From the NCBI RefSeq assembly GCF_003334315.1, contig NZ_QOWR01000046.1: DNA of 38,030 nucleotides; one strand, given 5' to 3'. Source of the DNA: Escherichia coli. GTDB taxonomy: Bacteria; Pseudomonadota; Gammaproteobacteria; Enterobacterales; Enterobacteriaceae. Made by a program: the position numbers and the translations under genes. The notes beneath the pieces were generated by a model, which searched no databases, had not been told where the DNA came from, and worked only from the letters and a program-made list of their open reading frames with translations. Shown piece after piece: positions 6,311 through 32,489 of the stretch. The first letter of the stretch is position 1. Each line of letters begins with the position of its first letter.

Positions 6311-7662
6311 TCTTCTCTGACTGGCCGTGGCGTCACTGGCGGCAAGTGCGGGGAGAAACCATCGCCTTACGTCTTAATGACGAGCAACTCAACTGGCGCG
6401 AGCTTTGTGCTCGCGTCGATGAATTAGCCTCCGGATTTGCGGTGCAGGGGGTGGTTGAGGGCAGCGGCGTGATGTTGCGGGCGTGGAATACGCCGCAAAC
6501 GCTGCTCGCCTGGCTGGCGTTACTGCAATGCGGGGCGCGGGTGTTGCCCGTGAACCCTCAGCTGCCGCAACCGTTGCTTGAAGAATTGCTGCCCAATCTG
6601 ACGCTGCAATTTGCGCTGGTGCCGGATGGGGAAAACACGTTTCCGGCATTAACGTCGCTGCACATTCAGCGGGTTGAAGGCGCACATGCCGCTACGTGGC
6701 AGCCGACGCGTCTGTGCTCAATGACGTTGACCTCGGGTTCTACCGGGTTGCCGAAAGCCGCTGTCCATACTTATCAGGCCCATCTTGCCAGTGCCGAAGG
6801 GGTGTTATCGTTGATTCCGTTTGGCGATCACGATGACTGGTTGCTCTCTTTACCGCTGTTTCACGTCTCCGGTCAGGGAATTATGTGGCGCTGGTTATAC
6901 GCTGGTGCGCGGGTGACGGTGCGTGATAAACAGCCATTGGAGCAAATGCTGGCAGGCTGTACTCACGCTTCACTGGTGCCAACACAACTCTGGCGTTTGC
7001 TGGTTAACCGCAGTTCCGTTTCCCTGAAAGCGGTGTTACTTGGCGGCGCGGCTATCCCGGTCGAGTTGACGGAACAGGCGCGCGAGCAGGGGATTCGTTG
7101 CTTTTGCGGCTATGGTCTGACCGAGTTTGCCTCCACGGTGTGTGCGAAAGAAGCCGACGGCCTGGCAGACGTTGGTTCGCCGCTGCCGGGTCGGGAAGTG
7201 AAAATCGTTAATAATGAAGTGTGGCTGCGGGCTGCCAGTATGGCAGAAGGTTACTGGCGTAACGGGCAACTGGTTTCACTGGTTAATGACGAAGGCTGGT
7301 ACGCTACGCGCGATCGCGGTGAGATGCATAATGGCAAGCTGACCATTGTCGGACGTTTAGACAATCTATTCTTCAGTGGCGGAGAGGGTATTCAGCCGGA
7401 AGAAGTCGAGCGCGTAATTGCTGCACATCCTGCGGTTTTGCAGGTGTTTATCGTCCCCGTTGCCGACAAGGAGTTTGGTCATCGACCGGTGGCGGTGATG
7501 GAGTATGACCACGAGAGCGTTGATCTTAGTGAATGGGTGAAAGATAAGCTGGCCCGTTTTCAGCAACCGGTGCGTTGGTTAACGTTGCCGCCTGAACTGA
7601 AAAACGGCGGTATTAAAATTTCACGTCAGGCGCTAAAAGAGTGGGTGCAACGTCAGCAATAA
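6307..7662 (+). CDS. menE: o-succinylbenzoate-CoA ligase (adenylate-forming enzyme)
   Basis: 451-aa ORF, 4-nt overlap with menC; [12 protein letters not shown]-binding motif. Confidence 0.92.
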
Positions 7663-7771
7663 TTAACCCTCCGTTTCACTTCTCATTTCAGCCATTCCAT
7701 TGCCGTTGATAAAGAGTTTATCTGTTAATCTGTAAATTGATGTGAAAACTCTTAGCAAACAGGATAATGCA

Positions 7772-8038
7772 ATGGAATGGCTGGTCAAAAAATCGTGCTG
7801 CAATAAACAAGATAACAGACATGTACTTATGCTCTGCGATGCTGGCGGCGCGATAAAAATGATCGCCGAAGTGAAGAGTGACTTCGCCGTGAAAGTGGGG
7901 GATTTACTCTCGCCTTTGCAGAATGCGCTTTATTGTATTAATCGTGAAAAGCTGCATACGGTGAAAGTCCTCTCGGCAAGCAGTTATAGCCCCGATGAGT
8001 GGGAACGGCAGTGTAAAGTGGCAGGGAAAACTCAGTAA
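7772..8038 (+). CDS. pmrD: Signal transduction connector protein PmrD (polymyxin resistance)
   Basis: 88 aa from ATG at 7772 ([18 protein letters not shown]...); the track ORF starts further upstream at 7742 in the same frame. Confidence 0.85.
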
Positions 8039-8418
8039 CGTTGTTTTGTCATGGGCAGGAAAATCAGCATCAACCCGCTCATAATACAGGCTACTCCCAG
8101 TAGTGCTTTCAGCGAAAAAGTCCCTTCCCAGCCGGGAAGTACCATTGAAGCAATCCATACCAGCACATAACTCATACTGAGCAAGGCATAGGCTTTGCTT
8201 AGCGCAAGTTTATGAAGCGTTTTATACCAACAAAAAACGGAAAGCAGATAACCCAGCAGCCCGAGTAACAGTATCCGGGCATCCAGGCCAAAAGCTAACA
8301 GAGCCGCGATAAAATCCCATAAGTGCGTCATCGGCGGCAGATGACTTGCCGCAAAACCCAGGCTTAATTGCGCAACTGAGGCAATAATGACGCTGAATAA
8401 TCCCCATATCAGGCCCAT
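8032..8418 (-). CDS. arnF: Undecaprenyl-phosphate-L-Ara4N flippase subunit ArnF
   Basis: 128 aa from ATG at 8418 ([12 protein letters not shown]...), hydrophobic 4-TM profile; start overlaps arnE stop (TAATG); 3' end overlaps the pmrD 3' end by 7 bp. Confidence 0.85.
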
Positions 8419-8753
8419 TACACCGTACTCCCGAGGATCACAATGCCACCAATAATGAACGCCACCCCACACCAGTGACGCGGCGATACCGGTTCGTGCC
8501 ACAGTTTTACTGCAGCCAGCGTCACCCAGACAAAATTCAGACTTAACATCGGGTAGGCAATGCCTACCGGTACGTTCTGCAAGACCAGCAGCCAGAGCAC
8601 CATGGCAAGACCAAGACAAGCCAGCGCCAGTCCCAGCCACAGCACGATATGTTTGCGCCGTTTGTTTATCGCCACAAAGCAGGTTGCCTGTTTCTGACAC
8701 AACTGCCCGGCAACGCTAAGCAAGCTGGCAAAGACTAATGTTAGCCAGATCAT
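8418..8753 (-). CDS. arnE: Undecaprenyl-phosphate-L-Ara4N flippase subunit ArnE
   Basis: 111-aa hydrophobic ORF, recognised sequence. Confidence 0.88.
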
Positions 8754-10402
8754 TTGGGACGATACTGAATCAGCACCAGACGCTCCTGACGATCGATGGC
8801 ATCTGCGGGCGGAATGGCGAGACTGTTGATATCTTCATCGCGGTCAACCGAAAGCACGAGAGTAATAATCCCCTCCTGACGATGTTGATTAAGCCAGTTT
8901 GCGAACTCATCACCGCTGACAAATCTCCCTTTCGCATCCGGATAATTAAGGCCGTATTTCAACTCACCTGTCTGGCGATACATGATGATGTCATCGCGTT
9001 GCAGGCTCCATGCCAGACCTGCGGCAACACCGACGCTATCAGTAAGAATATAGCGGCTTGGCTGAAGTGATTCTTGTGTCATCTCGACAAAAAATTGCGG
9101 ATGTTTTCCTTCCATAACTCTGTCAGGAATTGAAAATCCTACCAGCAACGCCAGCCCCAGCGGGCAAAGCGCGGCAAAAGGCCAGGTCTTTTCGACGTTT
9201 GTTAAGGTGTACCAGCCGAAAAATGCCCATAGCGAAAAAATCGACCAGGCACAAAAGACTTTATAGCTCTCGAAGGTTTGCCACACCGGCGTGTTCATTG
9301 GTCCCCACGGGGAGACCACAAATGTGGCAATAATGCCAGTGACGCCAAAAGCGATGTTAATCCAGCCATTAATCCGCAGCGCCAGAGGATTATTTTTTGC
9401 TGCCAGCAAAGCGTAATGCGCCATCAGCATTGCCAGAGATGCAAAGCAGGAAAGAATATAGGTGGGCAATTTACCTTTAGCGACGGAGAAAAACAGCAGC
9501 GGCATTATCGTCCAGCTCAACAAATAGACGGTTGCGGAATGCTTGCGGTTTTTCCAGCCTGTGTACAGTGCACCGGGGAGTAATCCCAGCCACGGCAGGC
9601 TACCGGCAATGATGACCGGCACGTAGTACCAGAACGGAGCTCTATGTTGGGCATCATCCAGTGCAAAGCGTTGAATATGCTCAACCCAGAAAAAATAGTG
9701 CCAGAAGTTAGGCTCCCGCTGCGCTATCGCCAGTCCCCAAGGGAGAACCGTCAGTACGCAACTGATAACCGCCAGCCAGCCGTAAATAAAGAGATCTTTC
9801 CAGCGTTTTTGCGTCGCTACCCATGGCAGCACGCTTAATACCGGCACGGCAAGGGCGAGAAAACCTTTGGTCATCACCCCCATGCCGCAGGTGATTCCCA
9901 GCAGTAAAAATCCTGCGCTTTTGCCTTTCCACGTCTGTGCCTGCATTGCCAGCCAGAAGCTGCACATTCCCGCCACCAGCCAGAATGCAATAAACGGATC
10001 GAGCACGGCATAAGTGCCGATGGCATAGACAATAAACAATGAGAGATAAATTACTGTGGCGAGTAGAGCCAGACGTTTATCGCGCCATAAGCGCAGAGTA
10101 AACCAGGTCACCAGCGCGGCAGTTAACAGGGTCGCAAAGATAACGCCTGCCCGCACACCAAAGTTATTCGCGCCAAATAGCCATTGCCCAATGCTGTTAA
10201 TCCAGTATCCGGCAATGGGTTTTTCGAAATAACGTAGCCCTAACAGATGGGGCACAATCCAGTCGCCGGATGCCAGCATTTCTCGACTGATTTCCGCATA
10301 ACGCGTTTCATCGGGTTGCCAGAGCAGACGCGTGCTGATCGGTAACAGGTAATAGCAGGCAATAAACGCGAAGAGGCCGATAAGGTAACGTACCGATTTC
10401 AT
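8750..10402 (-). CDS. arnT: Undecaprenyl-phosphate-L-Ara4N:lipid A arabinosyltransferase
   Basis: 550-aa polytopic membrane ORF; 4-nt overlap with arnE. Confidence 0.92.
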
Positions 10403-19896: not shown

Positions 19897-21102
19897 ATGA
19901 CCCTACCAAAAATTAAACAGGTTCGCGCCTGGTTTACTGGCGGTGCGACAGCAGAAAAAGGCGCTGGCGGCGGTGATTATCACGACCAGGGGGCGAATCA
20001 CTGGATAGACGATCATATTGCCACCCCGATGAGTAAATACCGCGATTACGAGCAGTCACGCCAGTCATTTGGCATTAACGTTCTTGGCACGTTGGTTGTT
20101 GAAGTCGAAGCAGAAAACGGCCAGACCGGATTCGCCGTTTCGACAGCCGGTGAAATGGGCTGTTTTATTGTCGAAAAACATCTTAACCGTTTCATTGAGG
20201 GTAAATGTGTCAGTGATATCAAACTGATCCACGATCAAATGCTCAGTGCCACCCTGTATTACTCCGGCTCTGGTGGCCTGGTGATGAATACGATTTCCTG
20301 TGTCGATCTGGCTCTGTGGGATCTGTTCGGCAAAGTGGTCGGGCTTCCGGTTTATAAACTTTTAGGCGGCGCTGTTCGTGATGAGATTCAGTTCTACGCC
20401 ACAGGTGCGCGTCCGGATCTGGCAAAAGAGATGGGCTTTATCGGTGGCAAAATGCCGACGCACTGGGGGCCACATGATGGCGATGCGGGGATCCGCAAAG
20501 ATGCCGCTATGGTCGCGGATATGCGTGAAAAATGCGGTGAGGATTTCTGGTTAATGCTCGACTGCTGGATGAGTCAGGACGTGAACTATGCGACCAAACT
20601 GGCCCACGCTTGCGCGCCCTATAACCTGAAATGGATCGAAGAGTGCCTGCCGCCACAGCAGTATGAAAGTTATCGCGAACTGAAACGCAACGCGCCAGTC
20701 GGAATGATGGTCACCAGCGGTGAGCACCACGGCACACTGCAATCTTTTCGTACGCTTTCAGAAACCGGTATCGACATTATGCAGCCGGATGTTGGCTGGT
20801 GCGGTGGTTTAACCACGCTGGTGGAAATTGCCGCAATCGCCAAATCCAGGGGGCAACTGGTGGTGCCGCACGGTTCGTCTGTTTACTCTCACCATGCGGT
20901 GATCACCTTCACCAATACGCCATTCAGCGAATTCCTGATGACCAGCCCGGATTGTTCAACGATGCGTCCGCAGTTTGACCCGATTCTGCTCAATGAGCCG
21001 GTTCCGGTGAATGGTCGTATTCATAAATCAGTGCTTGATAAACCCGGTTTTGGCGTCGAACTCAATCGTGACTGCAATTTGAAACGCCCCTACAGCCACT
21101 AA
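19897..21102 (+). CDS. rhmD: L-rhamnonate dehydratase (enolase superfamily)
   Basis: Start at ATG 19897 (MTLPKIKQ...) with GGAGA Shine-Dalgarno 5 nt upstream; track ORF begins at 19885 (MENIM...) without an SD. Confidence 0.9.
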
Positions 21103-23309: not shown

Positions 23310-23495
23310 TTAGTGGTTATTCGCTGCCAGATCGGCTTCGCTTAGCTGGGTGGCCGCGAGCACCTGGTCACGATCAAAGCCCTGTTCCAGCATGCGCAAA
23401 GCAATTTTAATGGCTTGTTCATGCAAACCTTCTAATTTACCTTCCTGCCAGCCAATTTGATGTCCTTCCTGCCGCAGCCGTTCAGCAATAGTCAT
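23310..23495 (-). CDS. ypaA: Small protein YpaA: free-standing duplicate of the RpnB C-terminal tail (RpnS-like small protein)
   Basis: 61-aa ORF; AAGGAGAG Shine-Dalgarno directly after the rpnB stop codon; protein [19 protein letters not shown]...[16 protein letters not shown] nearly identical to the last 56 residues of RpnB. Confidence 0.75.
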   Translation of the reverse strand: MTIAERLRQEGHQIGWQEGKLEGLHEQAIKIALRMLEQGFDRDQVLAATQLSEADLAANNH

Positions 23496-23691
23496 TAATC
23501 TCTCCTTTTAATGACAGTTCGGAATATCAGCATCAGTGAGTTGGGTTGTCGCCAGCACAATCTCACGTTCAAAGCCCTGCTCCAGCATGCGCAAAGCAAT
23601 TTTAATGGCTTGTTCATGCATACCTTCCTGCCAGCCAATTTGATGCCCTTCCTGCCGTAGCCGTTCAGCAATAGTCATTAATCTCTCCTTT
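23313..23691. repeat. Tandem direct duplication (about 180-195 bp unit) of the rpnB 3' end including its internal SD and ATG; copies at about 23313-23509 and 23511-23691 with a 12-bp indel
   Basis: Long identical runs in both copies, e.g. ccagcatgcgcaaagcaattttaatggcttgttcatgca and ttcagcaatagtcattaatctctcctttt. Confidence 0.85.
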
Positions 23692-24407
23692 TGTAGTGGT
23701 GAACGTTCGGCAATCTCCTCAATAAAACGGGTGAAACGGGAGGTATCGCCGCATTGCAGCAGATAATTAAACAGTGTTTGTAGCTGGCTGTCATTAGTGA
23801 AGCCTCTAACCAAAAGCGTGGTGATCCTGTCGACCATGCCGATTAAATCGCGGTCGCGAATATGCTTTTGAATCAGTTCCAGCAGAGCTATACGCCGATG
23901 TTGCATGATCTCATCGTCAGGTACGATGGTGATATCCACCAACGGAAAAGCTTCGGTGTACAACTGCCGGGCAAGTTGCGGATCGTCAAACTCATCCAGC
24001 CAGTTGAGTGAGTACGGGTAAGGCGAGGTTTCGCCATGATAAAACAGCAACGGCACCACCAGCGGGACTCTGTCATAGCCTTTGTCCAAGTGACGCTGCA
24101 TGGCGGCAGTGGCATAGCGCATTAGCCGAAAAGCCATATTCTTTTCTGCAGAGCTTTGATGTTCAATCACGCAGTAGATATAGCCGTCACCGTCGCTGGT
24201 TTCCACGGACCACAAAACATCCGAGTAGTAAGCGCGTAAACTTTTTTCAATAAAACTAGTGGGTTCCAGGCGTAAGGTTTGCAGGTTGCAAAGCTTGCGC
24301 AGTGGTTCTGGTAAATGTATTTCGAGAAAATCCCGTGCGGTTTCGGGTGTGAACATAAAGGTTTTAAATACCGCATCATGCGGGGAGGAGGTTGTTGATT
24401 CGGTCAT
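23508..24407 (-). CDS. rpnB: Recombination-promoting nuclease RpnB (YhgA-like, Transposase_31 / PD-(D/E)XK family)
   Basis: 299-aa ORF, recognised YfaD/RpnB sequence; internal AAGGAGAGattaATG at 23676-23690 in frame with the C-terminal tail. Confidence 0.88.
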
Positions 24408-31838: not shown

Positions 31839-32489
31839 ATGGCAGTTTCAGCAAAGTACGACGAATTTAATCACTGGTGGGCAACAGAGGGCGACTGGGT
31901 TGAAGAGCCTAACTATCGCCGTAATGGTATGAGCGGGGTGCAATGCGTCGAGCGCAACGGCAAAAAGCTGTATGTAAAGCGCATGACGCATCATCTGTTT
32001 CATTCCGTACGTTATCCGTTCGGCCGACCAACGATTGTCCGTGAGGTTGCGGTAATTAAAGAACTGGAACGGGCCGGTGTCATCGTGCCGAAGATCGTTT
32101 TTGGTGAAGCGGTGAAAATTGAGGGTGAATGGCGAGCGTTGCTGGTGACTGAAGATATGGCGGGGTTCATCAGCATTGCTGACTGGTATGCCCAGCATGC
32201 AGTATCGCCTTATTCTGACGAAGTACGGCAAGCCATGTTGAAAGCAGTGGCGCTGGCGTTTAAGAAAATGCATAGCATTAATCGTCAGCATGGCTGTTGT
32301 TATGTTCGCCATATCTATGTGAAAACAGAAGGTAATGCAGAAGCTGGTTTTCTTGACCTGGAGAAAAGTCGTCGCCGCTTGCGTCGCGATAAAGCGATTA
32401 ATCATGACTTCCGCCAGCTGGAAAAATATCTGGAGCCAATCCCCAAAGCGGACTGGGAGCAGGTGAAAGCGTATTACTACGCCATGTAA
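31839..32489 (+). CDS. inaA: Acid-inducible putative lipopolysaccharide/Kdo kinase family protein InaA
   Basis: 216-aa ORF, recognised InaA sequence. Confidence 0.88.
   Translation: MAVSAKYDEFNHWWATEGDWVEEPNYRRNGMSGVQCVERNGKKLYVKRMTHHLFHSVRYPFGRPTIVREVAVIKELERAGVIVPKIVFGEAVKIEGEWRALLVTEDMAGFISIADWYAQHAVSPYSDEVRQAMLKAVALAFKKMHSINRQHGCCYVRHIYVKTEGNAEAGFLDLEKSRRRLRRDKAINHDFRQLEKYLEPIPKADWEQVKAYYYAM

Follow-up and report, generated by a model that had tools for sequence, protein, structure and literature searches.

Where do the mRNAs of two convergent genes end if no DNA is left between the genes, and could the shared end couple their expression? This question is raised by pmrD and arnF, which meet tail to tail in a contig of Escherichia coli (NZ_QOWR01000046.1, assembly GCF_003334315.1), of which 38,030 nucleotides were analyzed (the "window" in the following). 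PmrD connects the PhoP/PhoQ system with PmrA/PmrB, and arnF is the final gene of arnBCADTEF. In low Mg2+ the PhoP-PmrD-PmrA pathway is expected to induce pmrD and the arn operon together. To approach the question in silico we consider the geometry of the junction, its conservation among relatives, the terminators that could act there and the potential regulatory consequences.

Geometry and annotation of the junction

The 3' ends of pmrD and arnF lie on opposite strands and have 7 bp in common, with both stop codons included (Table 1). The convergent overlap given in the preliminary description is therefore confirmed, as its coordinates are correct and the open reading frames and RefSeq agree on it. 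RefSeq annotates the identical 7-bp overlap in strain 214-4, which shows 100% identity across positions 7600-8500, and the same overlap is found in MG1655 (arnF 2372892..2373278, pmrD 2373272..2373538 complement) as well as in JJ1886 and UPEC_U013, which belong to divergent lineages. The 901-bp region from 7600 to 8500 was found in 5420 out of 5426 complete E. coli genomes, and the window is E. coli chromosome. A probe of 41 nt placed on the junction matched in 5308 genomes, and in all rows sampled the match carried the annotation of both pmrD and arnF.

Table 1. Positions and properties of the features discussed in the text (window coordinates; z-scores relative to shuffled sequences).
Feature	Position	Strand	Properties	Basis
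pmrD coding sequence	7772-8038	+	88 aa, 267 bp; protein ends ...GKTQ; ends CAG TAA, stop TAA at 8036-8038	ORF listing and RefSeq
arnF coding sequence	8418-8032	-	128 aa; protein ends ...KQRY; ends TAC TGA, TGA being the reverse complement of 8032-8034	ORF listing and RefSeq
arnE	8418-8753	-	upstream of arnF in the arn operon, whose transcript enters pmrD	annotation
Shared segment with both stops	8032-8038	none	TCAGTAA in the window, MG1655, JJ1886, UPEC_U013 and Escherichia sp. MOD1; TCAGTAG in E. albertii	
pmrD transcription start	7745 (MG1655 2373565)	+	monocistronic unit b2259	SMRT-Cappable-seq supplement (PMC6131387), placed via the pmrD ATG
Predicted hairpin (about 97 nt) round the whole pmrD promoter	7688-7784	+	arms 7689-7703/7769-7783; inner arms 7712-7719/7746-7753	
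arn 3' extension, first 78 nt past the arnF stop	7954-8031	-	C 33%, G 21%, C/G 1.62; antisense to pmrD 3' end; candidate Rho loading region	
C-rich stretch in the pmrD 3' extension	8059-8136	+	C/G 1.67; antisense to arnF 3' end; candidate Rho loading region	
Two small hairpins	8090-8104, 8124-8139	+	could shield the pmrD 3' end after trimming; no conservation beyond Escherichia	folding (z -2.5), sequence comparison
Control junction ais/nudI			convergent junction hairpin, z -3.3	
Control junction yfaU/rpnE			convergent junction hairpin, z -2.5	
Control junction glpQ/LysR-pseudogene			convergent junction hairpin, z -5.6	
Control junction inaA/yfaE			convergent junction hairpin, z -6.8	

As the positions of the stops are fixed by the reading frames, the overlap is not an issue of start-codon annotation. 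One could still suspect an artefact, with one of the genes being shorter or spurious, and the general frequency of misannotated overlaps is the only point that speaks for it. This suspicion is refuted by the frames and by the conserved full-length homologues of both proteins, so that we attach practically no probability to it. E. albertii retains the C-terminus of ArnF and Citrobacter has a similar one, PmrD is a member of a family with a length of 85-88 aa, and the Pfam domain PF11183 PmrD is present in the pmrD homologues. Both genes are real, and their tail-to-tail overlap is ordinary and has long been visible in public annotation.

Two further observations were made at this site. A mechanical open reading frame of 84 aa (7904-8158, - strand) spans the junction out of the arnF frame, with no evidence of being a gene. 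In some E. coli genomes pmrD is frameshifted (proteins P0016, P0017, P0003), giving alleles of 103 or 109 aa with altered C-terminal frames that extend further into the antisense strand of arnF.

Overlaps of this kind have been counted for E. coli before, leading to 75 convergent overlapping pairs among 4131 adjacent pairs (Huvet & Stumpf 2014, PMC4161906) or to 58 such pairs (Lillo & Krakauer 2007, PMC2174442). The genes pmrD and arnF belong to this group, as they are two real genes on opposite strands which share 3' nucleotides including the stops, and the overlap is likewise restricted to the short stop region. Convergent overlapping genes must site their terminators within coding sequence, and a Rho-independent terminator was predicted in only about 20% of them (PMC2174442). 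Termination in coding sequence or by Rho is also what we propose for pmrD/arnF. We see no essential difference from the other pairs. Within the window pmrD/arnF is 1 out of 5 convergent junctions. The overlap is statistically unremarkable and a normal feature of compact bacterial genomes.

Conservation of the junction

The loci of relatives were gathered through PmrD homologues, and the distance from stop to stop was measured. An overlap of 7 bp occurs in 7 Escherichia lineages, including E. coli, Escherichia sp., E. albertii and three further ones. In Salmonella enterica and its subsp. diarizonae the overlap comprises 6 bp (TCATGA), and in Citrobacter amalonaticus and a Citrobacter-like contig the stops are separated by gaps of 3, 8 or 9 bp. 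Room for an intergenic terminator between pmrD and arnF was found in none of the relatives examined (Escherichia, Salmonella, Citrobacter), which argues that the gene order men operon - pmrD - arnF(-) is ancestral to these three genera. Judging from the compared loci, the tight junction is inherited from their common ancestor, with pmrD being located between the men operon and the end of arn.

We also considered the linkage to arnF as a general feature of PmrD and rejected it, as the linkage is limited to Escherichia, Salmonella and Citrobacter and represents a clade-specific synteny. No arnF was found near distant genes of the PmrD family (39-42% identity, loci L016-L019), downstream of which amn (AMP nucleosidase) or a wzz-like gene lies on the same strand. 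Since these distant homologues are located elsewhere, coupling to arn is not intrinsic to the PmrD connector.

Search for terminators

On the + strand a consensus scan revealed no terminator-like sites between 8038 and 8900, and the - strand was equally free of them from 8031 to 7300. If the scan was relaxed, the - strand yielded only weak hairpin-plus-T sites inside pmrD, at 7983-7952 (dG -7.2) and 7889-7864 (dG -9.3), and the first candidate on the + strand occurred at 8502 (dG -6.7). Altogether 5 terminator-like sites were found in the region compared to 2.1 +/- 1.4 in shuffled sequences, a number that lies within about two standard deviations. The 67 nt round the junction fold no better than their shuffles (z +0.3 on the + strand, z +1.8 on the - strand), and a search of 7300-8900 against Rfam (E<=1) revealed no known RNA family. 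The remaining four convergent junctions of the window were used as positive controls, and each of them contains a strong hairpin between the stops (z -2.5 to -6.8, Table 1). The preliminary description had stated that no room is left for a terminator, and this statement holds: there is no intergenic DNA at all, and neither strand has an intrinsic terminator at the junction or close to it, while all four control junctions have their hairpins.

A bidirectional intrinsic terminator would consist of a G+C-rich hairpin flanked by A/U tracts between the stops, and pmrD/arnF possesses no such element. Terminators of this type, located between convergent genes with transcripts sharing their 3' ends, were reportedly described by Ju, Li and Liu (Nat Microbiol, 2019). 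Their pairs are convergent as is the pair analyzed here, but the hairpin is absent at pmrD/arnF.

In the regions of the window around two of the control junctions additional features were noticed. The 3' part of rpnE contains a tandem duplication of roughly 183-195 nt (23331-23509 and 23526-23692) with copies that are 84-97% identical. This duplication is missing in strain 214-4, which is otherwise the closest strain, and colinearity between the window and this strain is lost after about 20.5 kb (around 20536-20580). A strongly structured segment was observed inside the coding sequence of inaA (32225-32303, + strand, dG -31.4, z -4.3).

Transcript ends

With no intergenic DNA and no intrinsic terminator nearby, each mRNA must end inside the partner gene. 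A terminating ribosome furthermore needs mRNA past the stop, and functional pmrD and arn mRNAs therefore overlap by more than 7 bp. This has consequences for the earlier proposal that read-through from either operon produces RNA antisense to the other. The antisense RNA itself is retained, as every complete pmrD or arn mRNA has a tail antisense to its partner. The term "read-through" is misleading, since overlapping coding sequences oblige the transcripts to overlap, and what matters is the length of this transcript overlap, which is set by the point of termination in the partner.

Rho-dependent termination is most likely the route taken by both mRNAs. The overlap, its conservation and the missing terminator hairpin are shown by the analysis; the role of Rho, the tail lengths and any effect on expression discussed below are inferred. 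Both extensions contain more C than G (Table 1), and the arn extension is unusually unstructured compared to shuffled sequences (z +1.6 and +1.8), which favors the Rho route. One must keep in mind that an excess of C over G is a general property of RNAs that are antisense to coding sequence and hence no proof of Rho action. The Term-seq supplement of Adams et al. 2021 contains no entry for pmrD or arnF, and pmrD occurs in none of the 20 top-ranked papers of a literature search bearing on Rho inhibition by bicyclomycin.

In mechanistic terms the ribosome would leave the mRNA at each stop, and the untranslated C-rich RNA that follows would most likely be a substrate of Rho. After Rho termination the 3' ends would be cut back by exonucleases, leaving the two mRNAs with 3' tails that are complementary to each other and between tens and a few hundred nucleotides long. 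The distance between the start site of pmrD and the stop of arnF is 287 nt. As pmrD itself has only 267 bp, an arn tail of ordinary length for Rho termination could span, and be antisense to, much of pmrD. We consider it likely that the overlap and the lack of a nearby terminator cause both mRNAs to end inside the partner gene, presumably with the help of Rho, and that any regulatory effect is a by-product of this arrangement. If there is such an effect, it would damp pmrD during PmrA-driven transcription of arn, agree in direction with the feedback at the promoter and probably be modest.

The 3' ends might instead be set by weak intrinsic terminators or stable hairpins within the coding sequence of the partner, leading to a short and fixed overlap of about 80-170 nt. 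In this case arn would end at about 7952 or 7864, where the relaxed scan indeed places hairpin-plus-T sites on the - strand, and the end of pmrD would depend on the hairpins at 8090-8139. The segment 8090-8160 of the + strand folds better than its shuffles (z -2.5), and for 146 out of 165 convergent excludons of E. coli a predicted terminator within the transcript of the neighbor was reported (ExcludonFinder, PMC12288877). The hairpins are however weak (dG -7 to -9) with U tracts that are poor or displaced, the number of sites is within about two standard deviations of the shuffled sequences, and the hairpin inside arnF is not conserved in Citrobacter or Salmonella. The T tract at 7864 is accounted for by the conserved IKMI codons of PmrD. 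We thus regard embedded terminators as quite unlikely to set the ends, compared to termination by Rho inside the partner.

Two individual sites were tested as terminators and rejected. The T tract at 7855-7863 with its hairpin was considered for arn, but the tract arises as the complement of the conserved IKMI codons, and Salmonella lacks the hairpin. By prediction, the sites on the - strand that end at 7952 and 7864 are weak terminators at best. The other site is the palindrome CTTCCCGGCTGGGAAG with a T run (8124-8139, - strand), which looks like a terminator and is situated inside arnF, 85 nt ahead of its stop. As a terminator of pmrD it was discarded; it is probably a chance match, because the sequence encodes LPGWEG and is not conserved outside Escherichia.

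A hairpin around the pmrD promoter

The opposite boundary of pmrD is also of interest, as the whole promoter is predicted to be enclosed by a hairpin (Table 1). Its calculated stability is dG -36.4 on the + strand (z -5.9) and dG -34.0 on the - strand (z -7.0), and 0 out of 200 shuffled sequences were as stable. The outer helix comprises 15 perfect base pairs formed by CAGCCATTCCATTGC (7689-7703) and GCAATGGAATGGCTG (7769-7783), the latter arm covering the ATG of pmrD together with its first four codons. For E. albertii, three other Escherichia lineages, Salmonella and two Citrobacter lineages, folding predicts hairpins of a similar kind (z -2.6 to -5.8), and the hairpin is lost in one lineage of C. 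amalonaticus.

In an alignment of 15 sequences the outer helix was paired in 86.7% of the cells, compared to 21-43% if the partner columns were slid. Three of its pairs have changed on both sides, and in 17 cells a C-G pair has changed to U-G, which is a valid pair only in RNA of the + strand. Besides a function in RNA, the hairpin could be explained as a quasipalindrome maintained by template switching or as a protein-binding site at the level of DNA. A literature search found no description of a hairpin at the pmrD promoter.

The upstream arm is located upstream of the PhoP-dependent start site, and the hairpin can therefore form only in RNA that comes from menE. Between menE (stop at 7662) and pmrD no terminator-like site was found in the intergenic region 7663-7771. 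According to SMRT-Cappable-seq, men units end with menE, and pmrD is a separate unit from window position 7745 (PMC6131387). From the predicted structure, the hairpin may mask the start codon of pmrD in men read-through RNA and thereby insulate pmrD, and this masking together with Rho polarity may keep men transcription short of arnF. One could regard pmrD as a short gene that lacks conventional insulation of its transcription on both sides and combine its two boundaries into one functional model, in which the sweep of PmrA-driven arn transcription through pmrD from the 3' end acts as a second negative feedback, the 5' hairpin masks the start codon in men RNA, PmrD is made only from the PhoP-dependent start, and Rho stops men transcription before arnF. 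We regard this combined model as improbable.

Possible regulatory coupling

Since the coding sequences overlap, an overlap between the transcripts of pmrD and arn is a logical necessity. The pair arnF-pmrD would thus enter a list of excludons almost automatically, and ExcludonFinder reports it among the 165 convergent excludons of MG1655 (Nucleic Acids Res 2025, PMC12288877). The coverage of the transcript overlap is taken from this literature, where at least 50% of 58 MG1655 RNA-seq sets showed it, and the pair was singled out as acting in one pathway, a functionally related excludon. The convergent-overlap idea for arnF-pmrD is accordingly already in print at catalogue level. The entry concerns the same locus and the same convergent overlap of transcripts but offers no locus-specific analysis, 3' ends or test of regulation, and the overlap of the coding sequences itself is not discussed. 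A literature search revealed no study in which antisense or interference effects had been examined at pmrD/arnF. The p19 dsRNA study (Huang 2020) names neither pmrD nor arnF in the searchable parts of its supplements, but its media allow only poor expression of arn.

A second convergent overlap in the PmrA regulon is pmrR-basS (pmrB), which is also on the ExcludonFinder list (PMC12288877). Its 25-bp overlap resembles arnF-pmrD in arrangement and regulon. It differs in being a separate locus outside the window and in that one of the partners is a regulatory peptide of 29 aa.

A regulatory coupling of pmrD and arn through their overlap can be hypothesized from this arrangement, and we consider it doubtful. 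Kato, Latifi and Groisman (2003, PNAS 100:4706) reportedly found for Salmonella that activated PmrA represses pmrD by binding to the pmrD promoter. This feedback is negative and has the direction in which arn-derived antisense RNA would act, but it takes place at the promoter and has no need of a 3' overlap.

If the overlap were a selected excludon, arn transcription driven by PmrA would cross pmrD, possibly up to the promoter, and lower its expression. Polymerase collision, promoter occlusion or duplex cleavage by RNase III could provide the means for such a second negative feedback in the PhoP-PmrD-PmrA loop, and in the reverse direction PhoP-driven transcription of pmrD would damp arnE/arnF. 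The dimensions are suitable, with pmrD being only 267 bp long and its start site 287 nt away from the arnF stop, and the direction of the effect agrees with the known repression of pmrD by PmrA. That repression, reportedly shown by Kato et al. 2003 at the level of the promoter, already accounts for the feedback. The junction without a terminator has been retained in three genera, but a neutral deletion bias predicts the retention of a tight junction as well. The pair is catalogued as functionally related and has a companion in pmrR-basS, while the distant PmrD homologues do not adjoin arnF and the p19 supplements are without a dsRNA entry for either gene. Furthermore, pmrD and arn must be expressed together in low Mg2+, which is at odds with mutual exclusion. 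We therefore judge selection for an excludon to be unlikely and favor obligatory 3' tails with, at most, a regulatory by-product.

Implications

PmrA/PmrB and PhoP/PhoQ govern lipid A modification and the resistance to polymyxin and colistin, and PmrD joins both systems. The overlap as it stands is annotated everywhere and the overlap of the transcripts is already catalogued, so that it raises no new question on its own. If transcription of arn fed back on pmrD via the shared 3' end, this would represent an extra layer in a textbook circuit, with a possible effect on the kinetics of resistance.
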